Source of the DNA: an uncultured archaeon
Lineage (GTDB): Archaea > Iainarchaeota > Iainarchaeia > Iainarchaeales > GCA-2688035
DNA: 56,198 nt
NCBI GenBank assembly: GCA_964569815.1
Contig: CAZMUN010000003.1
Location: forward strand, 1 to 56,198
Reading direction: 5' to 3'
Part shown: in pieces, positions 3,464 through 31,095 of the stretch
How the letters are laid out: each line of letters begins with the position of its first letter
How positions within the stretch are numbered: the stretch's first letter is position 1
Made by a program: the position numbers and the translations under genes
The notes under the pieces: model-generated
What the model was told of the DNA's origin: nothing
What the model saw: only the letters and a program-made list of their open reading frames with translations
Databases searched by the model: none

Positions 3464-3550
3464 TAGGCTTTTCCCTAAGCAATGGATTAACTTCTTATTC
3501 TTTTGCCTGCTAAACTTTTTCCTAAAAGGAGGTCTTGTTTTTTGGAGGGA

Positions 3551-9055: not shown

Positions 9056-9090
9056 TTTATTAAATAGGAAACTATTCTATTAATCAAAAA
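9056..9090 (+). promoter_or_regulatory. Promoter block of giant gene 1 (copy 1 of a duplicated upstream element)
   Basis: TTTATTAAATAGGAAACTATTCTATTAATCAAAAA. It shares TTTATTAA and an identical 16-mer, GAAACTATTCTATTAA (9068-9083), with the region upstream of giant gene 2. The 16-mer ends 32 nt before ATG 9116. Confidence 0.5.
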
Positions 9091-9115
9091 TAACCTTAAT
9101 ACAGGATTGAACAAA

Positions 9116-12100
9116 ATGGACCTTGGTCTTGGCAGAAGCCTTTTTGAAAACCTTGTTGAAAAAGCAAAACAAGGCTATTTTTTCTTTGAGGACCGCTACT
9201 ATGGCATCCTTGACAAGATAAACGAGCATGTTCCTGTATACAAAGCAGTTGACCCAATTGACCGCGTTGTTCCCTCTTTTATAGTCTTTATTGCACTCCT
9301 TCTCACAGTTTTCGTTTTTTTTCTTTTACTGGCAATGCCTCAGGCAGCCCTTCTTTCCACGATTCGTGCGGTAAACGAAAGAGGCAACCCTTTGGAAAGC
9401 GTAAAAGTATCTGTCCTTTTGGAAGGCCAAAAGCTTGAACTTGAAACAGATGCCTTTGGCGAAACAGCGCTAAGCCTTCCGACAAGCGAGGTTTCTGCAG
9501 ACGTTGTTCTCTCCAAAGAAGATTTTCTGGAATTGTCAAAAACAGTTACCCTTAAGGCAAACGAGGTAACCGAATTCGTGCTTTCAAAAAGGGCCCTTTC
9601 CCTTCAGCCGAAAACATACTCCATTTACTTGGTTGACAGCGTTTCACAGCAGCTGGTAAAAAGGCCAGCTGAAATAAGGTTTTCCTGCTCAACAGGGGCA
9701 ACCCCCCCTTCAAAGGTTGCAGGCTCAAGCGGCGAATTCAAAAACATTGGGATATCAAGCGTTTGCGGAACCCTGGTTGCAAACATTTCAGCCGAAGGCT
9801 ACGAACCAGTGTCAAGCCATCCAATCAAAAAAGACCCCACCTACGTAAAGCTTGACCCCCTTAACAAAACCACGGAAATAAATGTTTTGGTAAAAGACCA
9901 TCTTGGCTTAGGGGTTGCAGGTTCAAGCGTAAAGCTCTTTGAAGATGACCTGCTGTCGGACCAGCTTGTTACAGACGGAAGCGGTACAGGCCTTTTTGAA
10001 AACGTCGGTCCTGGAACCTATTCCATTACTGCGTCACACTCAGACGGCAGGTATGCAGAAAGAACAGGCATTGTTGTAAGGCCTGGAATGCCACAGTCAA
10101 TCATCCTTAGTTTTGAAGAACTGGTTGAAGGAAGCAAAATATTCATGCATTTGCTTGATGTCTCAACCAAAGGAAATGTTTCAGATGCATCCATTTTCAT
10201 TTATTCAAACGACAAGCTTCTTTATTCAACTTCCAGCGATTTTTACGGCAAGGCTGAGCAGCCAGTAGACGGAAACCTTTCATTCATGGCAGTCATAAGG
10301 CACCCTGATTATTTGACGAAAATAGTTCCAGAGGTATGGGTCTTGGACGCATCCCAGGAAACACCGCAGAGCATTAACATGGCCCGTTCCACTGCAAGCA
10401 ACAACGGAAAGGCTTACGTTAGCGTAACAGACTTTGAGGCCCAGGAGCCGGTGGAAGATGCAACAGTTTTCCTTTTCGATTCCGAATTCCCAAAACTAGT
10501 CTTGAATTACCCTTCCGGCAGCACAAACGCAGACGGAAACCTTTTCATTGAAAACCTTCCGGCCTCAACCTATTTTGCAAAAGCAAAGAAAGGCGACACC
10601 GAAGGGCAAAGCGATGAAAAACAGCTGAGTGAAGGCGGCCTGATTTCCCTGCCTGTTGTGTTGGTTTTATCTGAAGGGGGCGTTGAAGTCACGGTTTTGG
10701 AAAAAAGCACAGGCCTTCCCATAGCTGGCGCAGAAGCAAAAATATTTGACTTTTCAAATGACGAATTGCTTGAATCGGGCCAAACGGATATGGATGGTGT
10801 TTTTGTTTCAAGAAAATTCAAGTCAAACAAAACCGTTTACGTAAAGGCTTCCAAGGAAAGCTACCTGAGTGAAGTAAGCGTGCCTGTCCCAATAATTGGC
10901 AAGGCGACGCAGGAAATCTCAATGCATTTAGCCAGCAAAAGCGACATAGACCCTGAAAAAAATATTGCCCTTTCCCTTGAAGGGGTTTATGAAGACCTTG
11001 AAACAGAAAGGCCTGCCTCAACAATTGAATCAGGGCAGCGCTACTACCTGAAATTTGGAATCGCGCTTCCAAAAGACGCAAACTACTCAAATTTAGGCCA
11101 TCATTTGCGCGTAGGCCCGGAAAGCCAGGCCCAATACCCTGAAACTTTGGGGCACGAGCTTTTCCTTGCAAGGCTTTTGGCAGACCAAAGCAGGGCCTCG
11201 CCCCAAGCCTCAACCATCTTCAGCGCCTGCTACGGCCCCCTGGACCTTTTCTCAAATCCATGTGTTTCAGATTCAGCTTCAAAGCAGGCCAACACACTCT
11301 GGCAGTTCCCTGACCCAGAGTCAAGCTACACCCTGGTCTTAAAGCTTGAAACCGAGCAATTCCTTGACGACGGAACAGAAATAGAGCTTAGATACAAAGG
11401 CAAGGCCGTTGTAGACGGACAGGCCTTTGAAACAGAAGAATTCCTGAAGAAATTCAAAATAGGGGAAACCATCTGCACGCCAAAGGTAGACTGCCCGCCA
11501 ATCGTTTGGCGGTTCTGGCTTCAAGGCCTGGAAGAAGAAAAGCAGCCGATTACAAACTTTGCTGAAGACGAAAAAATAGCCCTTCTTGAAAACACCACTT
11601 ACACGCTTTTCTATGAAGCCAGAAACACAAGCGGCTTTGACCTGACAGCAACTCTCGGCATCTCAAACAAAGGCCCTGAAGGCCCTGTTGAAATAAGCCC
11701 TGGCACAGGCTTTTCAGAAAAGAGCTTTTCAGCAGACACCGTTACAGAAACAGGTTCACCCGCAGCCCTGAAAGCAGTCAAAGAAGCAACCCTTACAAAA
11801 ATAGTTTTCCTGCTTAGCTCAACAAGAGGCATTTCGTCCGAGAAAGAGCTTTTCTTTGCAGTTGAGCCAGCCCAAGAGCTCATACTGGAAGTGGTTCCAA
11901 GCCGGCTCAACCCAGGGGACGCCACACAGGTAATAACCGGAACCGTTAAGGCTCCGGACGGAACCCCTTTGCAGGGAGCAAACGTCAACATTTACCTGCC
12001 TACTTCAGACCCGGGCCAGCCCAGGAGGCTTTTCCAAAGCATTGCCACGGATGAAGAAGGGTTTTTCAAAACCGCTGAAAACTTCAACCTTCGCGCCGGG

Positions 12101-13582: not shown

Positions 13583-15334
13583 ATGAAAAAAGTCAACGCA
13601 TTTTTGGTGTTTTTCACACTGGCAATGCTTCCTTTTGCAGCTGCGGAAAGCAACCTTTTCTACAAAGGCAGCCTCTACCTCGGCCTTGAAGACGAAAGCC
13701 TTTCCCAGGGCGAGACCCTGAAAGCAAACGTAACACTGGTAAGCCTGGAAGAATTCCCGATAGCGGAAGCATACCTTGTCTTTGAAGTGGTACAAGGAAA
13801 AGACTATTACTACCCGACACAGCATTCTGATTCAGACAACATTATTTGGGAAGAAAAAGTTTCAGGGCTAAACCTGGCCCCCAACGGAAAAACATCAAGA
13901 GAGTTTTCATTCAATCTGCCAGAAAACCTTAAGCCAGGGGACTACAGGCTTGACGTTTACGCAAAAACAAAAAAGACCCAGATTGTGGGTGCACCACACA
14001 TATTTGCTTCGCCTACATCTGCAAACTTCACTGTAACAGGAAGCCAGGGAAGCTTTCCTGAAGCCAAAATATTGAGGACAAAAACAATGTTCCACCAATT
14101 CTTGGGGCCTGTTGGGCCAGGCATAGGGCCTGGCGAGGAAATTGAAAACGAGGTCTTCCTGCTCAACGAGTCGGGAAAAAGCCTTTCAAATGCGGAACTT
14201 TTTGTAGGCTTGTGCGAATGGGATGACACCGCTTGTGGCAAATGGCTTTCAACAGCCGCCGAAAAACTTTCTCTTAAGGCAGGTGAAGAAAAAAGCCTTA
14301 ACGTAAAACTTGTTGCGCCTGAAATGCCTGACGCATACGCAATAAGAATAGAACTAAGAAACAGCTCTGGAGAGCTTTTATCGCTTTACAGGAACAGAAG
14401 CATAGTCTATGGGCCCACTGCCAAAATACACCAGCTCAACGTCAACGACTACAAGTTTGAAGAAGCCGACGAAATAGAGCTTTCCATGCTTTTGGGGCCA
14501 AGCCCTGACCACTACAAATGGCCTGTCTTTGAAGCCTTTAAAATAAAAGCATGGGTTGAAGACATGACAGACAAAAACAAAGTGCTTGTTTCGGAAGAAA
14601 AAACCATTGAATCAATTTCAGCCCCAGAATTCCCAATGCATTCCTTCAGCTTCCAGGCCCCAAAAGAGCTCACCCTGTTCAAAGTCTGCGGCCTTGTTGA
14701 AAAGCAAAACCAAGAGCACGAAAAATACTGCTATGTGGTTGACGCAAGCAAGTTCCCTGAAAAGGAAGCCGGTGAAGAAATTGAAGTCAAATGGGATTAC
14801 GATTCCGAGGAAAAAGCCCTTAACCTGGCTTTCTCAACACAGCCTCAAGGCTTGGAAATAGATGCCGCTTTCCTCTTAATGGACTTCTCAGCAGGCGTTC
14901 TTGTAGAACACCAGAACCTTAAAGGCAAAAGCCCGCAAAACGCTGTTTTAAGGGTGCCGGCAAAAAACTATTTGCTGCTTTTAAACAACTTTTCCACAGG
15001 CAGGCAAACAAAAATAAGCATTTCCCTTGACTCGGCAGGCCTTGCCCCAACCCTAAGGCCCTGTTCCAAGATGTCAGGCCAAAAATGCACAGAAGAACAG
15101 GTCTGCGACAACCCAGTGCCAAGCTCCGATTCCCCACTATGCTGCCTGACAAAATGCCGCGACCGCATTTCAAACCAGCCAAAACCAAATCCAATGGCTT
15201 TCCTTTACCATTACCTTATTCCTGCAATAGCCGCAATTCTCATTATCGTACTTGTTGCAGCCCTTTTAAACGCAAGGCCCAGAAGAAGAGAAAAAAAAGT
15301 GGTAGGTGAAATAGTTGACAAATACTTCAAGTAA
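13583..15334 (+). CDS. Secreted, C-terminally anchored protein (583 aa) with CARDB-like repeats and a Cys-rich stalk
   Basis: ATG immediately follows the upstream TGA (13580-13582), with GGAGG 7 nt upstream. Signal peptide MKKVNAFLVFFTLAMLPFAAA. Cys-rich stretch CSKMSGQKCTEEQVCDNPVPSSDSPLCCLTKC, then the TM helix LIPAIAAILIIVLVAALL and a basic tail. Confidence 0.7.
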   Translation: MKKVNAFLVFFTLAMLPFAAAESNLFYKGSLYLGLEDESLSQGETLKANVTLVSLEEFPIAEAYLVFEVVQGKDYYYPTQHSDSDNIIWEEKVSGLNLAPNGKTSREFSFNLPENLKPGDYRLDVYAKTKKTQIVGAPHIFASPTSANFTVTGSQGSFPEAKILRTKTMFHQFLGPVGPGIGPGEEIENEVFLLNESGKSLSNAELFVGLCEWDDTACGKWLSTAAEKLSLKAGEEKSLNVKLVAPEMPDAYAIRIELRNSSGELLSLYRNRSIVYGPTAKIHQLNVNDYKFEEADEIELSMLLGPSPDHYKWPVFEAFKIKAWVEDMTDKNKVLVSEEKTIESISAPEFPMHSFSFQAPKELTLFKVCGLVEKQNQEHEKYCYVVDASKFPEKEAGEEIEVKWDYDSEEKALNLAFSTQPQGLEIDAAFLLMDFSAGVLVEHQNLKGKSPQNAVLRVPAKNYLLLLNNFSTGRQTKISISLDSAGLAPTLRPCSKMSGQKCTEEQVCDNPVPSSDSPLCCLTKCRDRISNQPKPNPMAFLYHYLIPAIAAILIIVLVAALLNARPRRREKKVVGEIVDKYFK

Positions 15335-17678
15335 AATCCCTGTTGCGGCAATTACAGCGCTTGCGCTTGTTTTCCTAATCCAAAGCTGCCTTGCACAACA
15401 AATCAACACAGACCCTGGTTCATGCGGCGGATTTGGCGGAGGAGACCACTGCTTTTACAACGCTGACTACGAAACCCTAAGGCAGGACCCAACATCCTTT
15501 ACCTACAGCCTAAGCTTTGACAATCCATTTGCTTCAACCCAAGGAGAAGACGGGAAAACAACTTACATCGTCCCCTTGATGACCACGCTTTCGCTAAGCA
15601 ATTTTTCGACCTATGTAAATGTCTGCATTGACGGCGAGCATTCGACAGGAGTGCATGCAATAGACCTGTTTGTAGACGATGAAAAAGTCGGAGACAACTA
15701 CCGCATTGTCCCAGGCGACAGCTGTTTTGGCGGAGGAAGGTTTTATTCAGGAAACCAAAATCCGGTAGAGTACCTCTTCCAAATTCCAGGCATACACCAT
15801 GTGAAAATTGTTCTTGCAACCAGGAACAACGGAACCTGCGGCGTAATAAGGGAAGAATTCGACGTCATAGTTGTCCAGCCATTGCTTTCAATAAACGGCT
15901 CCTCTTCCCAGCTTGTTTCCTTTGACAAAACCGAAGCCGAAAAAAAGTTTTACATTACGTGGACGGTTTCAAACGTAGGCGGCGTTAGGGCAATAGTTAC
16001 AGGCGCACAAACAACAGGCTGTGAGGCAGCAGGCCTTGAATGCAGCCTGCCGGGCTTTGGCAGAATGGTTGTGGATCCAGGCGAAACACTGCTGATAGTG
16101 GAGGAAGTGAAAGCAACAAGGCCCCCCTCAATGCCTGCTTCAATTCCCCTAAACAAGCTCGGCCTCAAACTGACTTACACAGACGAGTTTGAAGCAAACA
16201 CCCTGCATAAACATTCCCACATTCCTGTTGAAAACGCGCTGCTTTGGAACGAAGAGCAGCGCTTCCACGCGGAGCTCTTCGGCGGCACGCAAAACCATTG
16301 CATTGGCAAAGACGGCCGAATGGGCGGAACAGGCCCTGGCCAAAAGCCCAAAGTCCTGCTCAACTGGGACTGGGACAGAATAGGCTTTGACACCTGCAGC
16401 AAAAAGCAGGAGCAGGGCCTTGATTTCGTGTACTGCGACCCAACACAGTTCAGCATAGCGCTTTTGGAAAGGCTTAATGAAATAAGGGAATACGGAAGCC
16501 AGGGAAAGGTTTCTGACGCAAAAGCCCTTGAAAGCTTCCAGGCCTACCTGATTGGAGACACAATAAACCAGGACTTCAGAAACGACTTCGATTACTATTA
16601 CAGAAACGTTTCGTTCCTAACCCCAACATGGTACTCAAGCCAGGAAAGCCCGTGGTACCTTTACTTCACAGACCCAAACAGGCTTTCATTCCCAAAAGAG
16701 GAAATAACAACAGGGCTTTACGACGTGAAACTGGAATTCGATTTCGAGCAAGACCAGTACGAGTTCTTTTACTCGGAAACAGAGCCAACCGCAACCATAA
16801 AAGTAAGGCTCGCAAAAATCAGGGACCCGCTTACTCCAAACCCTTTCTACTACCTGCCTTTTAACGGCGAAGTTGGCCTAAATGAAGCAAGGGAAATCGA
16901 CAGGCAGGGCTACGGCCTTGGTTTTTCAGGGCCAGAGCTTGCATTAACCTCTTCCGGCGAGGCAATTTCGGCAAAAGGCTCCGGCAAAAAAACCGTTTCC
17001 ACTTCAATTGAAGAGTCTTTTGAAGAAGTAAACATGCTCAACAGGGGCATCGTTCTTTCAGTTTCAAAAGAAGCCGATTCCATAACAATGTCGCCCTCCT
17101 ATGCCACGCCAATAATACTGAAAGCCAATGCTTCAGGCCAGACGGCAGACGCATACTACTCTGTAAGTGACGGGCAAAACATTATTGGTTCGCCTGTCGG
17201 CTATATGGGTCTCTGGACAGGCTTTGCATCCCAGCCAATGGCCTGCGCCAACTTTGACGACACCCCGCTCTATTACAGGATGAATGACAGCAAGGCCTCG
17301 GCAATGCCTGGCATGAGCGAAAACTCTTACGGCTTTAGCTGGGAAGACATTCCTGAGGAAAACCAGGAAGGCGAGGTTTTCATGCAATCCGTGTTTTACG
17401 CGCCATTGCAAAAGGACATGGCTTTAAGAAAGGAAACAGGAATTGACTTGCTTGACCCAAACGGCGGCTCTGACAGCATTTCATTGAATTATTCTTCCAT
17501 GAGCCCGGCCATAGACGCGGTATTCGGCTTGGTTTCTGAGGAAAGGCTCTGCGTGAACTTTGAAGAGAACTCTTTGGACTTCTGGTGGAACGAGCAAAAG
17601 CTTATCGAAGAGCTTGAAACAGTAAAAGAAGCAAACGTTCCAGGGCAAGCAACCTGTTCTGTTGAAGGGCGAACCTAA
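15315..17678 (+). CDS. Secreted protein (787 aa) homologous to the C-terminal module of giant protein 2
   Basis: TTG start 5 nt after AGGTGA, overlapping the upstream gene by 20 nt. Signal peptide IPVAAITALALVFLIQSCLA. Residues from about 320 onward align with the giant-2 C-terminus (KVLLNWDWDRIGFDTC / RVLLDWDWGAITTETC; NPFYYLPFNGEVG / NPFYYLPFNGDVG). Confidence 0.7.
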   Translation: MTNTSSKIPVAAITALALVFLIQSCLAQQINTDPGSCGGFGGGDHCFYNADYETLRQDPTSFTYSLSFDNPFASTQGEDGKTTYIVPLMTTLSLSNFSTYVNVCIDGEHSTGVHAIDLFVDDEKVGDNYRIVPGDSCFGGGRFYSGNQNPVEYLFQIPGIHHVKIVLATRNNGTCGVIREEFDVIVVQPLLSINGSSSQLVSFDKTEAEKKFYITWTVSNVGGVRAIVTGAQTTGCEAAGLECSLPGFGRMVVDPGETLLIVEEVKATRPPSMPASIPLNKLGLKLTYTDEFEANTLHKHSHIPVENALLWNEEQRFHAELFGGTQNHCIGKDGRMGGTGPGQKPKVLLNWDWDRIGFDTCSKKQEQGLDFVYCDPTQFSIALLERLNEIREYGSQGKVSDAKALESFQAYLIGDTINQDFRNDFDYYYRNVSFLTPTWYSSQESPWYLYFTDPNRLSFPKEEITTGLYDVKLEFDFEQDQYEFFYSETEPTATIKVRLAKIRDPLTPNPFYYLPFNGEVGLNEAREIDRQGYGLGFSGPELALTSSGEAISAKGSGKKTVSTSIEESFEEVNMLNRGIVLSVSKEADSITMSPSYATPIILKANASGQTADAYYSVSDGQNIIGSPVGYMGLWTGFASQPMACANFDDTPLYYRMNDSKASAMPGMSENSYGFSWEDIPEENQEGEVFMQSVFYAPLQKDMALRKETGIDLLDPNGGSDSISLNYSSMSPAIDAVFGLVSEERLCVNFEENSLDFWWNEQKLIEELETVKEANVPGQATCSVEGRT

Positions 17679-17723
17679 CCAAAAAGAAGCCTTTTCAAGC
17701 ATCCAAGAAACACCTGCGCAAGC

Positions 17724-17760
17724 TTTATTAATAAAGAAACTATTCTATTAAATGAAAAAA
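17724..17760 (+). promoter_or_regulatory. Promoter block of giant gene 2 (copy 2)
   Basis: TTTATTAATAAAGAAACTATTCTATTAAATGAAAAAA. The identical 16-mer lies at 17736-17751 and ends 38 nt before ATG 17790. Confidence 0.5.
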
Positions 17761-17789
17761 AAACACTTAGTCTAAAAAAGGGTATTTGC

Positions 17790-20700: not shown

Positions 20701-23700
20701 CTTCCCTGAGGACACCTATAGAAAACGCCCACGTCAAATTGGAAATAGACGGCCAGGACCCACGCGATTTCACAACAGGGGCAGACGGCCAGTTTTCGTT
20801 TGAAAGCATCACAGGCCTTGAAGGCCTAAGCGAAGTAACTCTTACGGTAAGAAAAGCAGGCTACAAGACCTTTGAAGAGACAATTCCGATTGGAACAGAT
20901 TCCGGTGCATTCAACCCGGATTTGGAATGCGTTGGCATAGAAAAAAACACGCAACAGGAGTTTTCACTGCACTTTGTAAGAAACAGTACAGTCCAGTCCC
21001 AAATTAAAGACACTTTTGAAGTAGTAAACGGCTGCGATTCCCCGGTCTTAATACGCATAAACTCCGAGCTCAAAACAGACAAGGCAAACGATTTCGCCTT
21101 GGACCCTGACGAAAAAGAAACAGTAACTGTTTATGCAGAAGCCTGGGAAAACCATCCTGACATGACAATAGGGGAATACGGCGTAATGGTGACAGCCAAG
21201 TACACTGCAGACCCTCCTGCAGCGCCATTCTTTGGGCCTCTGGCAACAGCCACGGTTTATGTAACAGACCCGACAAGCTGCTTCAGGCTAGCAGACCCTG
21301 CAAGCCCAGACAACCCTGATTTGATGAAATCAACCTTCAACATCGTTGAGGGGTCAGATGAAGGGCTGATAGTAAACGAATGCTTTGCCTACTTTGAAGA
21401 CCTGAAAATGCCCCGCCTTGACACAGTCCGCGGATATCTTGCAGTGGAAGACATATTCAAGCTAATATTCAACCCGCCGACCAAGCCAGCCGAAACCATC
21501 GGCAAGCAAAAGATTTTTGACCCAAGCAACCCAGGCTTTGGCGGCTCAGGAATGCTTTCATTCAATGCCATTGACAGCGGAGGCTATGTTTTCGTTGAAT
21601 GGGTTGACTTCCTTATGACAGACGGCGCCCACGATTCCGGCGCCAAACACAGGGTTTGGGCACAAACAAACAGGAGCGTTTGGTCAAATGTAACGTCACA
21701 GCTTCCATTCACAGACGCTCACCGCGGTCCAGCTGCGCCATCAAGCCTGCCTCATCCTGTAATAGACAACGAGGGCTGGGTTGACGTTGACACCTACTAC
21801 AAGTACACGCCAGGAGAGCACCCTTATTCTGATTTGCTTACAAACAACCCAATGTGGCAGGGCCAGCACAATGTATGCAACATAAACCTTACAGGCTTTG
21901 AACCAGGGCTCTCAGAATGCTCTGTGCCAAGCTACTTCCAGGGAAATCCAACCGTGCCATACAAAGTTGGTATGAATGCAAGCAAAATAAGGCTTGAGTC
22001 AAGCCAGCCTGCCACAACCAATGTTTCTGCCGCAAGATGGCAGTATATAAGTACCGATGCAGACCACGATGGCATAATAGACTTCACAATGCAGAACCGC
22101 GGCCTGATGGGCGAAACCTACGCGCTTATCGAAGTTGAGGACACCACCGATGTTCAATTTGTGGTTTCAGGCGAGGAACCCTCAAGCGGCATAACCGTCG
22201 CTTGGGCCTTGAGCAAAAGCTGTAACGTTAAGGGCGAAGGGACGGTAAGCCCTATGCCAGGCCCGCTTGTCGCAACACCGGGCCAGGTAATAGCAATGTC
22301 TGTTGATGAAGCCGTTGGCATTGGGTCGCCAGCAGGCGTATTTGATTCTTTGGAAGCAGTGCCTGTAAATGACTTGCTTCCCGAAAATCCAAAAAACATC
22401 TCTGAGGTTACCCTTGTTCTTAACGAAAACCAGGAGCAATTTAAAATAGAGGACCTTTCGCCAGATTCTACAGAAGAAATGGTTTTAATGGTCTACAGCG
22501 GCGGCGCCTGGGAAAGGGTAGGCCGCTTTGATGCTGAAAATACAGGTGCCAAAACCCTGCAATACACAGACATCCTTTCAGCAGAGCTCATCGCACTCGT
22601 AAACAGCACTAATGCCACCGATATGATGGTCGATGACATATTCATGAACTATTTTATAATAAACACTGAAGAAGCGCAGGTAGGTCAAGGCTCGCTTGCC
22701 ATACCCATAGGCGAAATTTCTGCAGAATCCGACATGCCTCCAGACAACACCGGCCTTGAATGCATTCCAGGCACTTCCCTTTACACTTTGTCCACCGACT
22801 CAACAGAAGCAGTGGTTTACTTCAGCGAAAGCAAGAGCCCGACACATTCAGACCCTTACGGCATTTCAGGAGAACAGCAAAGGATTGTCGCAGCAACCTC
22901 TTCACCTGAACAGGCAGGAAACACCCAAACAGAGCGCTTCCATGTAAGGGTTGTGGGGGAAGCGGCAACCCAGTGCATTTCAGAAAGCGGCATGGTTGGA
23001 AGCACGGGCATTGGCTCAAAGCCCCGCGTTCTCTTAGACTGGGACTGGGGTGCAATAACGACAGAAACCTGCAACGAAGCCAATGAAAGCTTTGTTTACT
23101 GTGACCCTGCGCAATTCACTGCCTCTTTAATAAAAAGGCTTGAAGAAATAAGAACGCTTGCAGCGGATGACATTACAGGCAACCTCATGGAAATCAGGCA
23201 AAAACAGCTCTTCAAAGCCTACCTTATAGAAGATGCTTACACCCCTGACTTCAGGAACGACTTTGTTGAGTTCTATGCAAACCAGTTCCTTGTGGATGAA
23301 ATGGCCAACGAAAAGCATCCTTGGGGCAACTACCTTTTAGACCAGGAAAAGCTTGTCTTAAACACCGAGGCAGCCCGCTCTGAGTCAGACCCGCAAGAGC
23401 CTGACATGGTTGGCGCAGGCCTGCATGAAATATACATAGACTTTGACTTTTCAGGCGACCAGTTTGACTTTTTCTACGTAGAGCCCCAGCCAGACGGCTC
23501 AAACCAAGTTGACTTGCTTGCAAACATCACCGTATACATCACCAAGTTTTCCGATCCAGTAATACAAAACCCATTTTACTACCTGCCCTTCAACGGCGAT
23601 GTAGGCAGGGAAGATGGCGTTCTCCAAAGGGAGGGCTATGGCCTTTCATTTGAAAACGATTCCCAGCCATTGATGGTTGTAGGCGACTTAGCCCAAGGGT

Positions 23701-24473
23701 ATACAACTGTTTCGCCAGAGGGAAGCACTGCAAGGAAAACAGTCCTTACTGAAAACATTTCCGACTTCCTTTTCACCAACCTAGAGGAAAAGGGAATGCT
23801 GTTAAAGGTCGAAAACAACCAGAACGAAATAAAGTTCTCGCCTTCGATTGCAACGCCTGTCTTGGCTGAAACCGTTTCCTCTGAAAACAAGGCAGAGGCA
23901 TTCTACAATTTAAGGGACGGCTCAACAGTTGTTTCAGGGCCTGGCACGCTTGCATCCTGGAGCGGTTCCGGCTCTTCAATGAGAATGGACGGCATCTGCA
24001 CCGACTTCCACGACAACAAGCTCAGGAAAAGCATTGCAGACATGCCTGGAAGCGGCTGTGCCTCAAGCGTTGAAGGCTCTTATGGCTTTTCATATGAGCC
24101 AGCACCAAACGACGAAAAGCTTTACCTTGAAACAGTGTTCTATACGCCGGCATCAAGCGCAGTTCACTTGCGAAAATCCTGTGAAAACGAAAGCAACTTT
24201 TATGCGCCTGACGTTGACGGCATACAAAAAACAACCCAGTTGAGCACGCCTATTTCATTAAGCCTTGAAAACTTTGAAACAAGGGTTGTTTCCTTGGATG
24301 ACCTTGTAAGGCTTGTTGGAGACAGCTATATCTGTGTTTCACAGTCCGAAGACAGCCAATACTTTACCTTCTGGTGGAACCCGCAAAGGGTTCAGGAAAA
24401 TCTTGGCCAGGTAAAAGCAGCAATTTCGAACTGGCCTGAACTCGACTGTTCGGGTGCGCTTTCAAGCGAATAG
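17790..24473 (+). CDS. Giant membrane-anchored surface protein 2 (2227 aa), a fused paralogue of the 9116 and 15315 gene products
   Basis: Uninterrupted 6.7-kb ORF. N-terminus MESPLIEKVVEKIKSGYFFLEDRYYAVLDKINKQVPIYKVVDPVDKVVPSF plus the TM helix LVLAAIILLLALFFVFIA. CarboxypepD_reg-like repeats (ATVRVIDETTDLETDSSSTGASGNALISSLQPGLYTVSVITPDGR). C-terminal module shared with the 787-aa protein. Confidence 0.85.
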   Translation: MESPLIEKVVEKIKSGYFFLEDRYYAVLDKINKQVPIYKVVDPVDKVVPSFLVLAAIILLLALFFVFIAQAAVPMSATLRVVDSKGEYVPGVSIELSSESFDFDSFETDEFGETIVSLPSPKIDAEGTFTKEGYLDLKRTVTLKANKSSEVTLQLKPSDIDLQPKDLTIRVYDSRTNQPITKKVILTFECSSGAFPPEKQEGTTGQFEVVKPANCSSLSATAEAEGYAKRSKTLSSTINTLYLSSDSAPTETTGRLNVLVKDSGNNPEPDATVRVIDETTDLETDSSSTGASGNALISSLQPGLYTVSVITPDGRTGRETGIYVRAGQTETVTITLISAADALSKKIFLEVKEEGPLAVISEVQVFIYENGVMLDSTSSDSSGIINKRIVEPADGATYLVVLAHPEFITKIVDDVPLKELSDDIPIAITMTRASMEDPATSSEILITVVDEERLPVEDALVTVYDSEYPEIPLKTPPGRTLEDGTYLLTNLAPDREYFAKAKDQDGTSEGQSDTGTTTAGETLNLEVMVVLGQGDIEVLVFDAETENKAPIPNAEVEFIDAYDFPTVVATCTTGPEGSCTSEPIPADKYVVVKAKATGFMPAYSVSRVDIINRNTADVEIGLEHESSIPPGIGKMDIRFRSFCQDRKCENSADKIESDEAGTLTYYAKFELIFAEDASYENTVQHIRAGPDSEISLPAPTGYKIKLMNAHGPLFTSAPLSSCWNNDPVDPFTDPEECATQLDAKQVNIYYPDLEGKQIIPVVVEFSVEAGLEDGEELEMHYKAKTSVSQEDFFTENKVKYFLIDEFLCEGQDIAWSFSLINPDESEAVLETGEDAANELEVNQGHALAFELYNCSNQDFSSAALKAEVPGTDPEAISFTAAEPYSKGPVNASGEETFSFAADTILAGQLPFYTVAEADLTNIVFNFSGAGRASTKTIPFSIESNLRLRVPFVPSKLAPYRPENLWGEVQDASLRTPIENAHVKLEIDGQDPRDFTTGADGQFSFESITGLEGLSEVTLTVRKAGYKTFEETIPIGTDSGAFNPDLECVGIEKNTQQEFSLHFVRNSTVQSQIKDTFEVVNGCDSPVLIRINSELKTDKANDFALDPDEKETVTVYAEAWENHPDMTIGEYGVMVTAKYTADPPAAPFFGPLATATVYVTDPTSCFRLADPASPDNPDLMKSTFNIVEGSDEGLIVNECFAYFEDLKMPRLDTVRGYLAVEDIFKLIFNPPTKPAETIGKQKIFDPSNPGFGGSGMLSFNAIDSGGYVFVEWVDFLMTDGAHDSGAKHRVWAQTNRSVWSNVTSQLPFTDAHRGPAAPSSLPHPVIDNEGWVDVDTYYKYTPGEHPYSDLLTNNPMWQGQHNVCNINLTGFEPGLSECSVPSYFQGNPTVPYKVGMNASKIRLESSQPATTNVSAARWQYISTDADHDGIIDFTMQNRGLMGETYALIEVEDTTDVQFVVSGEEPSSGITVAWALSKSCNVKGEGTVSPMPGPLVATPGQVIAMSVDEAVGIGSPAGVFDSLEAVPVNDLLPENPKNISEVTLVLNENQEQFKIEDLSPDSTEEMVLMVYSGGAWERVGRFDAENTGAKTLQYTDILSAELIALVNSTNATDMMVDDIFMNYFIINTEEAQVGQGSLAIPIGEISAESDMPPDNTGLECIPGTSLYTLSTDSTEAVVYFSESKSPTHSDPYGISGEQQRIVAATSSPEQAGNTQTERFHVRVVGEAATQCISESGMVGSTGIGSKPRVLLDWDWGAITTETCNEANESFVYCDPAQFTASLIKRLEEIRTLAADDITGNLMEIRQKQLFKAYLIEDAYTPDFRNDFVEFYANQFLVDEMANEKHPWGNYLLDQEKLVLNTEAARSESDPQEPDMVGAGLHEIYIDFDFSGDQFDFFYVEPQPDGSNQVDLLANITVYITKFSDPVIQNPFYYLPFNGDVGREDGVLQREGYGLSFENDSQPLMVVGDLAQGYTTVSPEGSTARKTVLTENISDFLFTNLEEKGMLLKVENNQNEIKFSPSIATPVLAETVSSENKAEAFYNLRDGSTVVSGPGTLASWSGSGSSMRMDGICTDFHDNKLRKSIADMPGSGCASSVEGSYGFSYEPAPNDEKLYLETVFYTPASSAVHLRKSCENESNFYAPDVDGIQKTTQLSTPISLSLENFETRVVSLDDLVRLVGDSYICVSQSEDSQYFTFWWNPQRVQENLGQVKAAISNWPELDCSGALSSE

Positions 24474-24496
24474 TTTCATTTAAGCAGAGGCTTTCC

Positions 24497-25549
24497 ATGT
24501 TTCCCTTTTTTTATCTAAACATTCTGGCAGTATGCCTTCTTGGATTTTTCACATCCTACACAGACCTCAAAAAAGGCATTATAAAAAACAAGGCCGTTTT
24601 TCCTGCAATCGCGTTTGCTTTTCTGCTCACTATCCTAAACGGCTTCAGCTTTTACGCCTTTCTATTAAACGGATTGCTTGCATTTGCTTTGGGTTTGGTT
24701 CTGTGGCTTGCTGGCCTTTGGAGTGCCGGAGACGCAAAGCTTTTCCTTGCCTTTGCCCTGCTTTTTCCCTTGAACATGAATCTTTCTTCCCTTTTTCCAT
24801 CTTTTGGAATATTCATTTATTCCTTTGTCCCAGCCTTTGCCCTGCTTTTAGTGCTTGTTCTCCTCAAAACAAGCTCGAAACAAAAGCTTGATGCCTTGAA
24901 AGAGGCCTTTAAGCCAGGCCTTGTGCTGTCAGTGGCAGTTTTTCTTTTCGCTTTCTACTGGATTCTGGAAAATATGCTGGTCTTTTTTGCAATTCAACTG
25001 GATTTTCTATCCCTTTCATTGCTTTTGTTCCTAATTGTGTCGTTTGTTGAATTCATTCTTCCCAAAAAGTCTGTTTACTTCTTTGCCCTAGTTTCAGCGG
25101 CCTTTGCCTTCATAGAATTTGAGGAAATCCTGACGCCTTTCTTCATTGGCTTTTTTCTCTCATTCCTGCTCATAGTTCTGGTCGTGCTTTTTTTTGTCCT
25201 AAGGCTTGGCTTTGCCTGCTTTGGAAAAGAAAAAAGGCTTTCAGATTTAAGGCCTGGAATGGTTTTGCTTGATTCCATTGTTTTCCGGGGAAAAAGGCTT
25301 GAAAAAAAAGAAGTTCTTCTTCCGTCCTTTGTAAACATTTTTTCGAAAATAAGGGAAAAAAAGGCAGTGGAAACAGGCCCAAAAGGCCTAAGCCAAAAAG
25401 ACATCTCTTTCCTAAAAAAACAGCAAAAGAAAGGCCTTCTTGCATTTGAAACAGTTTCAGTGCAGGAAACACTGCCCTTTGCCCCCATAATTTTTATTGG
25501 AACCCTTCTTTTACTTCTCTCCTACCTGCTTCCATTCTCTCTGTTTTAA
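24497..25549 (+). CDS. A24-family aspartyl peptidase (prepilin/preflagellin peptidase-like) with a C-terminal extension
   Basis: Polytopic membrane protein. First catalytic Asp lies in SYTDLKKGIIKN (D23, codon 24563-24565). Second lies in the GxGD-type motif WSAGDAKLF (D79, codon 24731-24733). An extra Lys-rich soluble segment and a terminal TM helix follow from about residue 240. GAGG lies 6 nt upstream of the ATG, and the gene starts 23 nt after the giant gene stop. Confidence 0.8.
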   Translation: MFPFFYLNILAVCLLGFFTSYTDLKKGIIKNKAVFPAIAFAFLLTILNGFSFYAFLLNGLLAFALGLVLWLAGLWSAGDAKLFLAFALLFPLNMNLSSLFPSFGIFIYSFVPAFALLLVLVLLKTSSKQKLDALKEAFKPGLVLSVAVFLFAFYWILENMLVFFAIQLDFLSLSLLLFLIVSFVEFILPKKSVYFFALVSAAFAFIEFEEILTPFFIGFFLSFLLIVLVVLFFVLRLGFACFGKEKRLSDLRPGMVLLDSIVFRGKRLEKKEVLLPSFVNIFSKIREKKAVETGPKGLSQKDISFLKKQQKKGLLAFETVSVQETLPFAPIIFIGTLLLLLSYLLPFSLF

Positions 25550-25583
25550 AAAATCTTCCCCCCTTGCTTTTTTTGAGCCTATC

Positions 25584-25907
25584 ATGGGAGAAAAAGACAA
25601 CTTTGAAACAGATGAAAAGCAAAGCCTTGTGCTTGTTTCAGTCAACCCCAAAATATTCTCCCTGCCAGTCATTTTTTCGGCAGCCTACTGGATGATGGAC
25701 AAGGCGTTTGTAGTAATAGACGGCAGCCCGGAAACACAAGTTGTGGTTTCATTAAGGCCGAGAAAAAACCAAAAGCTTGAAGAGCTTGCAAGGCTTTTCA
25801 ACGACGAACTCTTAAACTATGCTGTCAACGCAGAAGAAACCAAAAAAACGGAATCCCTGAGAAACGAGCTCATAAAACAGGCCTTTGCAGGCCACTCAGG
25901 CAAATGA
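25584..25907 (+). CDS. HxsD-like small protein (His-Xaa-Ser system accessory protein family)
   Basis: 107 aa from ATG 25584. Pattern VLVSVNPKIFSLPVIFSAAYWMMDKAFVVID ... LFNDELLNYAVNAEE resembles the HxsD family, whose model name I recall as chp_LLNDYxLRE. Located next to the radical SAM pair and the HxS-repeat peptide. Confidence 0.6.
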   Translation: MGEKDNFETDEKQSLVLVSVNPKIFSLPVIFSAAYWMMDKAFVVIDGSPETQVVVSLRPRKNQKLEELARLFNDELLNYAVNAEETKKTESLRNELIKQAFAGHSGK

Positions 25908-26164
25908 TTAAAATGAGGCAAATAACCCTTGACAAAAAGAAAAACACCGCATTCCTAGACCTCAACAGCTTTTTCTACCCCAGGCATCTTCTTCAGTTTG
26001 CCAAAGCCGAGTTTTCAAAAAACGCGCAAATATCCTTTTCACAGGAAAACGGCCGCACAAAAGTTGAAATCAAACCCAAAGGGAAAGCCAGCGCAGAGGA
26101 AACAGCACTGTACTTCTGCAACTATGCTCTGGGCTTGAAGCAGGAGTTTGGAGACCATGCCTGA
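25904..26164 (+). CDS. Second, shorter HxsD-like small protein (tandem paralogue)
   Basis: 86 aa, with an ATGA overlap on the upstream gene. Same layout as the previous protein (FLDLNSFFYPRHLLQFAKAEF ... VEIKPK ... ALYFCNYALGLKQE). Confidence 0.5.
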   Translation: MIKMRQITLDKKKNTAFLDLNSFFYPRHLLQFAKAEFSKNAQISFSQENGRTKVEIKPKGKASAEETALYFCNYALGLKQEFGDHA

Positions 26165-27551
26165 AACCAAAGCCAAACAAATGCCAAAATTCCAAAAAAA
26201 CAAGTTTTTTTTGCACAAGCTGGCAAACGGAAAAAATCTGCTTATAACAGAACTCGGCAGGTTCACAGCCCTGACAGGCCAGGAATTCCAGCAATTCCAA
26301 AAAGGAAGCCTTTCCAAAGAGCTGTTCAAAAAACTTGAGGAAAGCCACCTCATTGCAACAGAAAAGAACAAGCCAAAAATGGTTTCAGATTATAGGACAA
26401 GGTATGGCCATGCAGGGGAAGGAATTTCCCTTCATATAGTTAACCCGAGCATGAAATGCAACCAAAACTGCCTTTACTGCTATGCAAACGCACAACCTTT
26501 GGAAAGAAAAGGCTTTGACCTAGACCAAAAGACTGCAAAAAAAATAGTTGACTTCATATGGCAGACCCCCAGAAAAAACCTTGTAATAGAATTCCAGGGA
26601 GGCGAGCCCCTGGCAAACTTTCCTGCAATAGAATACATCGTAAACTATGCAAAAACAAAGAAGGGAAAAAAAGTGCACTGGCGCATTGTCTCCAATCTTT
26701 CCCTAATGGACGACACAATTGCATCCTTCTTCAAAAAAAACAAGGTCCTTGACATCTGCACCTCCCTAGACGGCCCAAAAAACGTCCATGACAAAAACCG
26801 GCTCCTAAAAGGGGGCAGTAGCTTTGACAAAACAGTTGAATGGATTAAAAGGCTAAAACAGGACCACGACTTTGAATACGTTGGAGCGCTTTGCACCGTA
26901 ACCAAACACAGCCTCCCCTATGCAAAAGAAATCGTTGACCAATACCTTGAATTGGGGCTGCCTGACATAACGCCTGTTCCACTGAGAAAAATAGGCCGTG
27001 CCGCCAAAAACTGGGAAAAAATCGGCTACCAAGGCCATGAATACCTTAGCTTTTGGAAACAAGCATTGGAATACTGCCTTCAAAAAACCAGGGAAGGCAA
27101 AAAAATAAGCGAGCAGTTTTCAGTCATGATGCTGGACAAAATGAACAAAGTGAGGCCAAGCTACCACACCTGCTTTTCAAAGCCATGTGGAGCAGCATTA
27201 ATGCAGTGCAGCTATCAGCCCAACGGCGACATATACACATGTGATGAAGCAAAAGCAGAGCCAATCTTCAAAATCGGGGACATTGAGCAGAGCTATGAAC
27301 AGGTGTTCACCTCGCCAGAAGCCCTGAACATGGTTTCCATTTCCTCCTCTTTGGGCTTTGCATGCAACGAATGCCCCTTCACAGGCTTTTGCAGGATATG
27401 CCCTGTAATGCTTTACTGCACTCAAGGAAACCTTGTTCCAAAGCTTTCATTTGATGAAGACTGTAAAACCAAAAAAGCCCAGTTTTCTTACCTGCTTGAA
27501 AAGCTTTTCGGGCCAGACAAAGACATTTTAAGGGAATGGCAAGGCAAATAA
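26157..27551 (+). CDS. Radical SAM / SPASM-domain peptide maturase, HxsB-like
   Basis: ATG 26157, with GGAG 10 nt upstream and an 8-nt overlap on the upstream gene. CNQNCLYC cluster, GGEPL, and a SPASM-like CSYQPNGDIYTC ... CNECPFTGFCRIC. An N-terminal extension of about 90 aa (FFLHKLANGKNLLITELGRFTALTGQEFQQF) is the kind of element seen in peptide-binding maturases. Confidence 0.8.
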   Translation: MPETKAKQMPKFQKNKFFLHKLANGKNLLITELGRFTALTGQEFQQFQKGSLSKELFKKLEESHLIATEKNKPKMVSDYRTRYGHAGEGISLHIVNPSMKCNQNCLYCYANAQPLERKGFDLDQKTAKKIVDFIWQTPRKNLVIEFQGGEPLANFPAIEYIVNYAKTKKGKKVHWRIVSNLSLMDDTIASFFKKNKVLDICTSLDGPKNVHDKNRLLKGGSSFDKTVEWIKRLKQDHDFEYVGALCTVTKHSLPYAKEIVDQYLELGLPDITPVPLRKIGRAAKNWEKIGYQGHEYLSFWKQALEYCLQKTREGKKISEQFSVMMLDKMNKVRPSYHTCFSKPCGAALMQCSYQPNGDIYTCDEAKAEPIFKIGDIEQSYEQVFTSPEALNMVSISSSLGFACNECPFTGFCRICPVMLYCTQGNLVPKLSFDEDCKTKKAQFSYLLEKLFGPDKDILREWQGK

Positions 27552-27586
27552 TTAAAAACAAGAAAAAGCTATTATATGCTGTTATT

Positions 27587-27814
27587 ATGCCAAAAATGCC
27601 TGAAGTAAAAAAAACCATTTCTTCCTACCTCTCGGAGGAAAACGGCCGAATCACAAAACACACTGTTTTAACACTTGGCGCGATAATGGCCGCATCGGCC
27701 CTGGCCTCAATACACTTCAGGAACGCGGCAGCTCAAACCAAGCACAAGCACACCCACATGTCTACCAGGCCGCCTCCGCCCCATGCCTCACACGGCTCAC
27801 ACGGCTCATACTAA
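27587..27814 (+). CDS. His-Xaa-Ser repeat precursor-like peptide (HxsA-like), 75 aa
   Basis: MPKMPEVKKTISSYLSEENGRITKH, then the hydrophobic helix TVLTLGAIMAASALASI, then a His-rich tail KHKHTHMSTRPPPPHASHGSHGSY containing HMS, HAS, HGS and HGS. The 9-nt unit cacggctca occurs twice in tandem (27791-27808). ATG 27596 and the track start 27536 are alternative starts. Confidence 0.6.
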   Translation: MPKMPEVKKTISSYLSEENGRITKHTVLTLGAIMAASALASIHFRNAAAQTKHKHTHMSTRPPPPHASHGSHGSY

Positions 27815-27865
27815 TTTGTGGCAATCCCTATTCATTTTTATTGACTTCAACCAACTATCCTAGTT

Positions 27866-28846
27866 ATGGCCCTCAAAAAGCCGCTTGAAATAAAAATACA
27901 GTTAACGGAAAAATGCAACTTTGACTGCGGCTTCTGCTTCAACAAGCAAGGCTATCAAAAAGCAGGCGAAATGGCTTCAAGCACGGCCAAAAAGGCAATA
28001 GAGAAAACAGCTGAAGAGGGAATTGAAGCAATCCGCTTAACAGGCGGTGAGCCATTGCTCCACCCAAATTTAGTCAAGCTTTTGGCCCTTGCAAGAAGAA
28101 AAGGCCTCTACACCATGCTAAACACAAACGCCTCAATGGTGAATGAAAAGAATGCCAAAGAGATAGCTGAAAACAGCGACAACATCCTTATCTCAATGCA
28201 TTCCCTGGAGCCAAACAAAAGCACCCTTAAAGCCATAAAACTTTTCTCAAAGCACGGAAGCTTTCTTAGGGCAGCCACAATTCTCACAAAAGAAAACATT
28301 GAAAACCTGGAAAAATTCCATTCAGCTGTTTCCAAAACGCCTTTCAGCCAATGGGTTTTGCTAAGGCAAATACCCAATGCCCTCAACAAAAAACCCGTAA
28401 CAGCAGAAGAAATGGCCAAAGCTGTTGAAAAAATAAATTCATTCAACAAAGGCAGGGCAAAAAAAGACCGCTTTCTTATTGAAAACGCTTTGCCCTTCTG
28501 CTGCCACAAGCCAAAGCTTGTGGAAAAAGCCTGTTTGGGGGGAATGCATGAAGACGGCCACAGCAGCCTTTTTGCAAGCCCAAGCGGGAAAATAAAGCCA
28601 AGCTATTTTTTTGATATTCCGCTTGGCACGGTTGAAAAAAGCGCCTTTTTGGAAGCCTGGGAATCCGATTTTATGAAAAGGATGAACAGCCTTGAATTCA
28701 TTCCTGAAACCTGCCACGAATGCAAACATGTCCTGAAATGCATGGCAGGAAGCCGTTTCTCTGCCTTTTTTTCAAAAAACACTCTCTATGCCTTGGACCC
28801 TCTGGCCAAACCCCTTGAATTTGAAAAAGAGCTTGGCCTCGCATAA
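27866..28846 (+). CDS. Radical SAM protein with C-terminal Cys-rich (SPASM/twitch-like) region; second maturase of the cassette (HxsC-like role proposed)
   Basis: CNFDCGFC cluster, TGGEPLL, and C-terminal CCHKPKLVEKAC ... CHECKHVLKC. TATA-like TTTTTATT (27835-27842) lies 23 nt before the ATG. Confidence 0.8.
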   Translation: MALKKPLEIKIQLTEKCNFDCGFCFNKQGYQKAGEMASSTAKKAIEKTAEEGIEAIRLTGGEPLLHPNLVKLLALARRKGLYTMLNTNASMVNEKNAKEIAENSDNILISMHSLEPNKSTLKAIKLFSKHGSFLRAATILTKENIENLEKFHSAVSKTPFSQWVLLRQIPNALNKKPVTAEEMAKAVEKINSFNKGRAKKDRFLIENALPFCCHKPKLVEKACLGGMHEDGHSSLFASPSGKIKPSYFFDIPLGTVEKSAFLEAWESDFMKRMNSLEFIPETCHECKHVLKCMAGSRFSAFFSKNTLYALDPLAKPLEFEKELGLA

Positions 28847-28854
28847 TAAAGAAC

Positions 28855-29550
28855 TCATTCAAAAAAGAAAAGGCAGTGGTATTCCTCGTTTTCATTTTTT
28901 GCAATGCAGCCGTTCACATAAACAGGCACTGCAGCAAAACAGTGCTCTGAGCAGTGCTCAACGCATGCCCCCAAATTCTGGGAAACGGCCCTTTTCGCTG
29001 CCTCCAAATCTGTCTCTGCGGGCTCCATTCCGCAGAACTGCTTTGCCTCAGTAAAATGCCCTATGTCGCAGCTGTCATTCCAGTTAACTTCCGCTTCCAA
29101 GGCACCAAGGCTCTGGCAAATGTTCGCGTTAACATTTTCAGCACCGGCTTCGCAAACCGAGCCAAGCTCATCCAAACCATTTATGCCAAGCTTGTATTTC
29201 AAAACATTGAGCTGGGTGTCGGCTTCCTCTAGGGAAGCTGTCTGAAAAATGCTTGCCTTTTCCACAAACCCTTGCCTTTGCCCAAAACTCATGTAGCTCT
29301 CCCTGAAAAAATCCTTCTTTATCCACAAAAGCTTTTGGAGCCTTTCAAGGCCAGCCATATCCAAATCCTGGCCCTGAAGCTTTTCTATTTCCGCGTCAAG
29401 AATTGCCTGGTTTGCAGGCTGCAAAAAGCCAGGGTAAGGCCTTGAAAGCCGCTCTTCCAGAAAAACCCTCTCCAGGTTAACTGAAAGCCAGACAAGGCCG
29501 GCAATAAACACGATCAAGGCCGCTGAAACCATTGCATTCTTTGCCTTCAT
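28855..29550 (-). CDS. N-terminally anchored Cys/His-rich protein (hypothetical)
   Basis: TM helix MVSAALIVFIAGLVWLSV. Nine Cys in the last ~100 residues, including CVEHCSEHC. No family recognised. Confidence 0.55.
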   Translation of the reverse strand: MKAKNAMVSAALIVFIAGLVWLSVNLERVFLEERLSRPYPGFLQPANQAILDAEIEKLQGQDLDMAGLERLQKLLWIKKDFFRESYMSFGQRQGFVEKASIFQTASLEEADTQLNVLKYKLGINGLDELGSVCEAGAENVNANICQSLGALEAEVNWNDSCDIGHFTEAKQFCGMEPAETDLEAAKRAVSQNLGACVEHCSEHCFAAVPVYVNGCIAKNENEEYHCLFFFE

Positions 29551-29745
29551 ATCAAGCTAAAATAAGGCTTAAACCACTTTATTACTTTTTGCCAAAAATG
29601 CAAGCGAAATAAATGGCTAGTGAGATTCCCTTGCTATACTGAATTTATTGGAGTGTTCCTTGCCCTGAACCGGAACCAAAATTGGAAAACCGCGCAGTCA
29701 GGGTGCTGGACTTGGAGGGCAACCTGGTAAAAACAGTCAACGAAT

Positions 29746-31035: not shown

Positions 31036-31095
31036 TTACAGATTTTTCTGCAAAAAACATTATAAGAACTTCCAGGGAAAGCTTTTACTGGTTCC

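Follow-up and report, generated by a model that had tools for sequence, protein, structure and literature searches.

The closest described systems are the His-Xaa-Ser (HXS) systems of bacteria, 99.7% of which are found in Pseudomonadota, and which have been characterised as antiphage systems that block phage DNA entry (Li et al., Nat Commun 2026, PMC13128918), so that an earlier, sequence-only reading of the DNA described here, which held the function of Hxs genes to be unknown, is out of date on this point. In E. coli, N-terminal processing of the precursor HxsA is non-canonical and depends on HxsB, HxsC, and HxsD; no protease was identified for it, and the paper mentions neither archaea nor a peptidase (PMC13128918). 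The present analysis concerns a 56,198-nt stretch of DNA from an uncultured archaeon (hereafter the window; all feature positions are given in its coordinates), in which genes of Hxs type lie behind two giant surface-protein genes and the gene of an A24-family protease. The region is probably a composite, made up of a conserved Hxs peptide-maturation cassette of the type seen in DPANN archaea and the candidate phyla radiation (CPR) and of lineage-specific giant genes, with the protease cutting HxsA.

The cassette consists of the protease, HxsD, HxsD-like, HxsB, HxsA, and SPASM radical S-adenosylmethionine (SAM) genes (24497-28846), together with a divergent HxsC-like radical SAM gene further upstream. 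The profile assignments of A24, HxsD, and HxsB proposed in the sequence-only reading mostly held, with several scores at or just below the curated Pfam and NCBIfam cut-offs. HxsB (26157..27551, + strand), a radical SAM/SPASM maturase with the cluster motif CNQNCLYC, scored 362 bits against TIGR03978 (cut-off 370) over model positions 4-465 of 466, with the next family at 127 bits, and its homologues (40-75% identity) in metagenome-assembled genomes (MAGs) of DPANN archaea bear the HxsB name at NCBI and JGI. HxsD (25584..25907, +) reached 48.6 bits against TIGR03976 (cut-off 50), and its orthologues at two closely related loci (L001 and L002) carry Pfam HxsD PF27806, while the small HxsD-like protein encoded next to it (25904..26164, +) passed HxsD_rel NF038315 (41.7 bits, cut-off 41).

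The identities of the other two radical SAM genes needed correction. The second in-line gene (27866..28846, +; 326 aa with a SPASM-like C-terminus) is not HxsC-like: its best matches were generic NirJ2 and MoaA types, with no HxsC among the top family matches; a gene of this type comes after HxsA in many DPANN loci. The HxsC/HxsC4-like gene is instead the one at 8092..9021 (-), which is divergent from the first giant gene and encodes the cluster motif CNNSCLFC. Its top two families were HxsC4 (NF038332, 148.7 bits against a cut-off of 500) and HxsC (TIGR03977, 106.7 against 267.9), and neither of the two radical SAM proteins passed TIGR03977. All three, HxsB included, carry a CxxxCxxC motif. 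A viperin identity was considered for these proteins and rejected (NCBIfam viperin, 75 bits against a cut-off of 180); PADLOC v2 (2023), which includes no HXS models, returned generic viperin-core radical SAM matches only.

The precursor is a 75-aa HxsA-type peptide (27587..27814, +) with the leader PEVKKTISSYLSEENGRITK, an Ala-rich hydrophobic stretch, and a core ending HMS..HASHGSHGSY; its last 20 residues hold four H-x-S motifs (HMS, HAS, HGS, HGS), and relatives have long (HxS)n arrays. The leader type is common to 51 distinct peptides, with the consensus P-K-I-K-K-x-I-S-S-F-L-x-x-E-E-G-K-I-S-K-x-S-L-L-x-L-G, and the cores vary in length and composition. After the leader comes an Ala/Gly-rich hydrophobic stretch, often ending AxA, and then a core of variable His-Xaa-Ser repeats, commonly ending SY or GQW. 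Two near-invariant leader glycines bracket the start of the hydrophobic segment, one before K/R-I-S-K and the other 11 residues on. Leader-bearing peptides adjoin HxsB in most loci, and this arrangement, in which a short precursor joins a conserved leader to a variable core and its gene lies next to that of its maturase, is of the type known from ribosomally synthesised and post-translationally modified peptides (RiPPs). The window peptide scored 34.3 bits against HxsA3 (NF038309, cut-off 65), and GQW-ending peptides at four other loci (L075, L077, L067, and L025) passed HxsA4 (NF038313) with 61-87 bits against 55; NCBI records list the HxsA-type peptides as 'hypothetical protein'.

Some HxsA-type proteins depart from this plan. 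Variants were seen at L028 (14713-15312), L044 (6850-7422), and L035 (5724-7031); in some HxsA-type proteins the HxS repeats are followed by a Peptidase_S74 ('chaperone of endosialidase') domain (64.8 and 46.8 bits), and one other variant carries Hint/intein domains. The Peptidase_S74 domain folds trimers and cleaves itself. The sequence (G-S-H)n is a Gly-X-Y repeat, with weak matches to collagen-like adhesins, so that long HxS cores might assemble into trimers of the collagen type.

The gene of the A24-family protease belongs with the Hxs genes in a single conserved unit, as tests from either side showed. Starting from the protease, one genome per GTDB species was scanned, which returned 80 loci, and their open reading frames (ORFs) were called and then classed by phmmer and by hmmsearch profiles made from the window proteins. 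HxsD, HxsB, or HxsA lay within 5 kb of the protease gene at 12 of the 13 Iainarchaeia-type loci and at 31 of 38 other DPANN loci, which came from Undinarchaeota, Aenigmatarchaeota, Woesearchaeota, Nanoarchaeota, Pacearchaeota, and Micrarchaeota; at 24 of these 38 HxsD was the immediate neighbour. Among weaker, mostly bacterial-labelled loci (Patescibacteria, Omnitrophota, Poribacteria), 21 of 26 paired the protease with arrays of HxsC4-like radical SAM genes. Starting from the other side, four HxsB homologues (~40% identity) were selected on contig size alone, and the protease was found inside the cluster at all four loci, in four different arrangements.

The conserved pairing did not depend on the neighbourhood. 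At L001 and L002 the whole window layout is repeated, and these close relatives say little about function because the Hel308 and HemN/U32 flanks are shared too. At L003 and L004, where the protease is 30% identical, the flanks are unrelated and there is no giant gene, and the order protease, HxsD, HxsD-like, HxsB-like is kept. For one classical prepilin peptidase of archaea (P0042), by contrast, the neighbours are pilins with a class III signal, and no Hxs genes lie nearby. Since the HxsB proteins of DPANN archaea are named as such at NCBI and JGI and some relatives pass the HxsA4 model, the presence of Hxs in DPANN is visible in databases; no paper describing a link between an A24 protease and Hxs genes was found in the literature searches, so that the A24 component of the cassette is apparently undescribed while the Hxs genes themselves were already known.

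Two features of individual loci may be recorded here. The gene at the HxsB position of L004 (11695-12822, 375 aa) has no recorded Radical_SAM Pfam match and scored 64 bits against the window HxsB; it may be a degenerate or pseudo-radical SAM partner. A number of loci labelled as bacterial (Patescibacteria, Omnitrophota, and others) are unusually dense in radical SAM genes, with the A24-like gene coming after 3-8 consecutive HxsC4-like genes (L056, L058-L068, L076, and L082-L086).

The protease itself (24497..25549, +; 350 aa) is an A24-family GxGD polytopic membrane aspartyl protease whose C-terminal domain resembles archaeal PepC. It barely passed Pfam Peptidase_A24 (PF01478; 26.7 bits, gathering cut-off 26.5) and scored 22.6 bits against Arc_PepC (PF06819, cut-off 23.4), and no NCBIfam model matched it. 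Homologues were recovered at 24-74% identity, and most of them carry precomputed PF01478 and/or PF06819 matches; the family comprises 533 clusters (50% identity, E <= 1e-30), or 1849 at E <= 1e-10. The catalytic Asp pair, D23 and D79 (WSAGDAK), is invariant in two alignments of 19-23 sequences that include pilin-adjacent archaeal peptidases, and two conserved Asp residues, the second in a G-x-G-D-type motif, are what marks the A24 family. The AlphaFold model of the protease had a mean confidence (pLDDT) of 85.7. As the sequence-only reading had noted, the window contains no pilin: no ORF with a class III (pilin-like) signal was found in it, and no pilus ATPase or platform protein was matched by Pfam in the 24 window ORFs scanned, most of those beyond 41.8 kb lying outside the scan.

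The A24-family intramembrane protease is specific to the DPANN/CPR-type Hxs variant, and the best reading is that it removes the conserved HxsA leader. A24 enzymes (FlaK, PibD, PilD) cut on the cytoplasmic side of the membrane, after a Gly or an Ala residue, and the leader glycines, which bracket the start of the hydrophobic segment, would offer a cut position of this type. A protease encoded within the cassette would also fit the gap left by the bacterial system, where HxsA is cleaved by a protease that has not been named. In the proposed sequence of events, the HxsD proteins and the radical SAM enzymes would bind the conserved leader (P-K-I-K-K-x-I-S-S-F-L-x-x-E-E-G-K-I-S-K), with the two small HxsD-family proteins probably binding or chaperoning the precursor, and the radical SAM enzymes would modify the His-Xaa-Ser core. 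The Ala/Gly-rich hydrophobic segment would then insert into the membrane, the protease would cut at the cytoplasmic face beside one of the two near-invariant glycines, and the modified peptide would be released or exposed at the cell surface. By analogy with the bacterial system, the product would probably act in the envelope and possibly against virus DNA entry. The data show which genes are present, that their linkage is conserved, and that the Asp pair and the leader motif are kept, whereas cleavage, modification, export, and biological role are inferred.

Several observations weigh against leader removal by an A24 enzyme in a cassette separate from the giants. The A24 assignment is thinly supported, with a Pfam margin of 0.2 bits; a Foldseek search against the PDB placed FlaK (3s0x) second with an E-value of 2.1 and TM-scores of 0.27/0.38, which is not significant, and the sequence and profile searches of the PDB with the protease gave no match. 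The residues near the leader Gly (E-E-G-K-I-S-K) are acidic, unlike the class III pattern of K/R-Gly followed by hydrophobic residues, and the HxsA hydrophobic segments often end AxA in the manner of Sec signals, so that a signal peptidase could make the cut. The 23-nt gap between the second giant gene and the protease gene holds a GAGG 9 nt before the ATG, which makes co-transcription of the two plausible, and together with one other DPANN locus (L021) at which a giant on the opposite strand still adjoins the protease, it would allow a functional or regulatory tie to the giants. Lastly, at L004 (8146-10029), L041, L051, and L055 (Woesearchaeota-type), 3-5 classical pilin-like genes with class III signals (MKRG/QAAMEF and similar) stand directly upstream of the protease gene, so that the protease there may be an ordinary prepilin peptidase.

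This last point leads to the alternative that the A24-like gene encodes the ordinary prepilin or pre-archaellin peptidase of the cell, with no dedicated part in leader removal, and lies beside the Hxs genes because HxsA is pilin-like or pilus-associated, or for co-regulation alone. Besides the pilin-like genes at the four loci, the Hxs-linked protease family can be aligned from end to end with pilin-adjacent peptidases such as P0042, and small DPANN genomes may hold a single A24 gene. Most cassette loci, the window included, nevertheless have no pilin-like ORF near the protease, and the linkage to HxsD and HxsB survives at least four rearrangements, which would be difficult to account for if the genes had no function in common; the 21 of 26 bacterial-labelled loci with HxsC4-like arrays point the same way. 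I consider this alternative unlikely.

The second alternative concerns the giants, and their architecture has to be set out first. Giant surface protein 1 (9107/9116-13582, +; 1491/1488 aa) and giant surface protein 2 (17790..24473, +; 2227 aa) both begin with a strongly conserved N-terminal module of ~45 residues, which is followed by a single transmembrane helix. In giant 1 the module reads GYFFFEDRYY..LDKIN..PVYK..DPIDRVVPSF, and the family consensus is K-G-Y-F-F-x-E-D-R-Y-Y-x-x-L-D-K-I-N-x-x-V-P-I-Y-K-x-x-D-P-I-D-K-V-V-P-S-F, directly before the helix; neither Pfam nor the PDB gave a match to it. Beyond the helix the giants are highly acidic and carry CarboxypepD_reg, Big_1, and SpaA-type (immunoglobulin-like) domains, and as judged from these sequence features they are acidic surface proteins, anchored at the N-terminus, of a kind typical of Iainarchaeia (Diapherotrites), which agrees with the sequence-only reading of them as anchored surface proteins. 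Giant 2 ends in a C-terminal module of ~500 aa that giant 1 lacks. In the first unit this module is encoded by a separate gene for a 787-aa secreted protein (p787; 15315..17678, +), whose residues 313-773 are homologous to the 'WDWD' module of giant 2 (34% identity over 509 aligned positions, E 1e-81), so that the first unit is a split form of the second. Between giant 1 and p787 lies the gene of a 583-aa secreted protein (p583; 13583..15334, +) with a signal peptide and a C-terminal transmembrane anchor, which is part of the split unit.

The same architectures recur outside the window. At the loci found with the N-module (L087-L164) the giants stand in tandem, two or three together, or take the split three-gene form, and the order N-module protein, p583, p787 was seen again at L101, L109, L125, L141, and L153-154. 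The N-module also heads a family of proteins of 1200-3000 aa (for example at L094, L103, L104, L129, L138, and L146). A word-indexed protein search with p787 matched four proteins, p787 itself among them; neither p583 nor p787 nor giant 2 gave a meaningful match when searched by sequence against the PDB, and an AlphaFold model of the C-module, built from five sequences, had a pLDDT of 44.5.

Giants, protease, and Hxs genes could be one integrated surface or adhesion module, in which the giants are matured by the protease and by radical SAM chemistry, as the sequence-only reading had proposed. A giant and the protease are adjacent and on the same strand at every Iainarchaeia-type locus (13 of 13), with gaps of ~10-60 nt; the HxsC-like gene lies immediately upstream of the giant or giants in the window, at L001/L007, and at L087, a 2.5-kb contig on which it is divergent from a giant gene and which ends inside that gene; and in the window and at L001/L007 there are Hxs genes downstream as well. 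L021 keeps the giant beside the protease despite inversion onto the opposite strand and different flanks. The most conserved residues of the giants, D-P-I-D-K-V-V-P-S-F, lie at the boundary between cytoplasm and transmembrane helix, which is where A24 enzymes cut.

The evidence on the other side is broader. L021 is the only one of the 38 other DPANN loci at which a giant homologue adjoins the protease, so that 37 of these cassettes have no giant, and the Iainarchaeia loci share Hel308, HemN, and U32 flanks, so that adjacency there may be inherited synteny. A metagenome search with the N-module returned 78 loci, and only two of them (L088 and L090, close relatives with Hel308 upstream) had the protease and Hxs genes downstream; among the 76 without, ~20 carry complete giants and extend 2 kb or more downstream of them, with neither protease nor Hxs genes. 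A motif search of the giants found neither a class III signal with its Gly/Ala at position -1 nor a leader of the HxsA type nor an array of His-Xaa-Ser repeats. They thus bear no sign of being acted on by the protease or the radical SAM enzymes, and they were rejected as class III or HxsA-leader substrates. The integrated module appears improbable: the unit of A24 and Hxs genes is supported, and the giants as its matured component are not.

The preferred reading instead treats the giants as separable from the cassette, given linkage at two of 78 loci and a duplicated promoter block of their own. At L022 and L054 the HxsC-like gene lies directly beside the protease gene and divergent from it, whereas in the window and at L001/L007 the giant genes lie between the two, which suggests that the giants came to lie within a pre-existing Hxs cluster in the Iainarchaeia lineage. 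Most likely they are neighbours that may share a transcript with the cassette, and not its substrates; a functional tie between giants and Hxs genes is unproven and is not general, and the giants are neighbours in the Iainarchaeia lineage only. A stronger version, in which the GxGD protease is the dedicated leader peptidase of a radical-SAM-modified His-Xaa-Ser peptide pathway, widespread in DPANN archaea and CPR-like bacteria, that has been co-transcriptionally wired to the giants in Iainarchaeia, is put forward tentatively and with less than even confidence. That protease, Hxs genes, and giants are unrelated and adjacent by inherited synteny alone is very improbable, for although the segment from Hel308 to U32 is wholly syntenic within Iainarchaeia, the adjacency of protease and Hxs genes recurs over six DPANN groups and bacterial-labelled loci with different flanks and orders, and the two-way linkage data already contradict such an accident for this pair.

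The layout of the array was largely as first described. The ORF map shows ten co-oriented genes on the + strand between 9116 and 28846, and all nine junction distances given in the sequence-only reading were reproduced (0, -20, 111, 23, 34, -4, -8, 35, and 51 nt); nine junctions make ten genes and not the eleven that had been counted, a number reached only by adding the divergent radical SAM gene at 8092-9021 (-). Its second copy of a promoter block was also recovered: an AT-rich 28-nt block, TTTATTAA-N4-GAAACTATTCTATTAA, occurs exactly twice in the window, where shuffled sequences gave an expectation of 0. The copies lie at 9056..9083 (+), 32 nt upstream of the ATG of giant 1, and at 17724..17751 (+), 38 nt upstream of that of giant 2, and no copy was found among all 168 loci of relatives that were fetched. 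A promoter and terminator scan of the cassette yielded nothing above shuffled controls, with a bacterial consensus that is unsuited to archaea, and the Rfam and tRNA scans of the window for RNA genes were empty.

The window is archaeal, as it encodes both the large and the small PolD subunit, Cdc6/Orc1, Hel308, and NOG1, and its nearest relatives are MAGs labelled Candidatus Iainarchaeum or Diapherotrites. A possible extension of the cassette on its right side (28855..32058) comprises a 231-aa Cys-rich membrane protein (-), a HemN-like radical SAM protein (-), and a U32-family protein (+). The same trio, in a different order, also flanks a distant cassette (L027, 8345-16048) whose protease is 33% identical to that of the window and which has no giant, and this recurrence is suggestive, and only suggestive, of a cassette that may reach further right than 28846. 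Upstream of Hel308 there are a 731-aa gene with a weak CARDB match (1268-3463) and a 454-aa gene whose product has a hydrophobic segment at the N-terminus (3503-4867); the two may encode additional surface proteins.

The archaeal and CPR variant encodes a candidate protease inside the cassette, and the processing step of HxsA can therefore be tested directly. It extends Hxs to episymbiotic lineages with small genomes, whose envelopes and viruses are poorly known, and the work also marks out a family of giant surface proteins in Iainarchaeia, in which the N-module is strikingly conserved and the architectures are split or fused. If leader removal by the protease is true, the 'missing' processing step of HXS-type systems would be identified, a class of non-pilin substrates would be added for A24 peptidases, and the pathway would be the first RiPP-like one to be matured by an A24 enzyme. 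An antiviral or adhesion function at the level of the envelope could, if true, be tied to the main surface coat of the cell in Iainarchaeia.

Among known systems, the cassette resembles the radical SAM/SPASM RiPP pathways (sactipeptides, ranthipeptides, SCIFF) in its short precursor with a conserved leader and variable core, its SPASM maturase, its small accessory proteins, and its cluster-encoded protease. Leader proteases of RiPPs are typically of the C39, S8, M16, or a similar type, and no paper was found with a GxGD intramembrane protease in this role. The protease is like the archaeal prepilin and preflagellin peptidases (FlaK, PibD, EppA; PF01478 with PF06819) in its N-terminal A24 domain with two Asp residues, the second in G-D, and in being polytopic with an Arc_PepC-like C-terminal domain. 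Unlike FlaK it is 350-380 aa long with more transmembrane helices, and unlike FlaK, PibD, and EppA it is linked in the window to radical SAM maturation genes and not to pilins, archaellins, or assembly ATPases, and its presumed substrate HxsA does not show the canonical K/R-G ahead of a hydrophobic stretch.

The curated family covered by the variant Hxs models of NCBIfam (HxsA3, HxsA4, HxsC4, HxsD_rel) includes the leader-bearing peptides, although the HxsA and the HxsC-like protein of the window stay below the cut-offs of these models (34 bits, and 149 against 500). With the bacterial HXS system (HxsA/B/C/D, TIGR03976-03979) the window shares an HxsB-type radical SAM/SPASM protein, by far its best profile match, HxsD-family small proteins, an HxsC-like radical SAM protein, and a precursor that combines His-Xaa-Ser motifs with a hydrophobic, signal-like segment on the N-terminal side. 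It differs in its archaeal (DPANN) host and in an HxsA of 75 aa that has a long conserved leader and no room for a peptidoglycan-binding domain. There are two HxsD-type genes, the second in-line radical SAM protein is not HxsC, and the gene order is protease-D-D'-B-A-radical SAM in place of D-B-C-A, with an A24-family protease as an integral part of the cassette.

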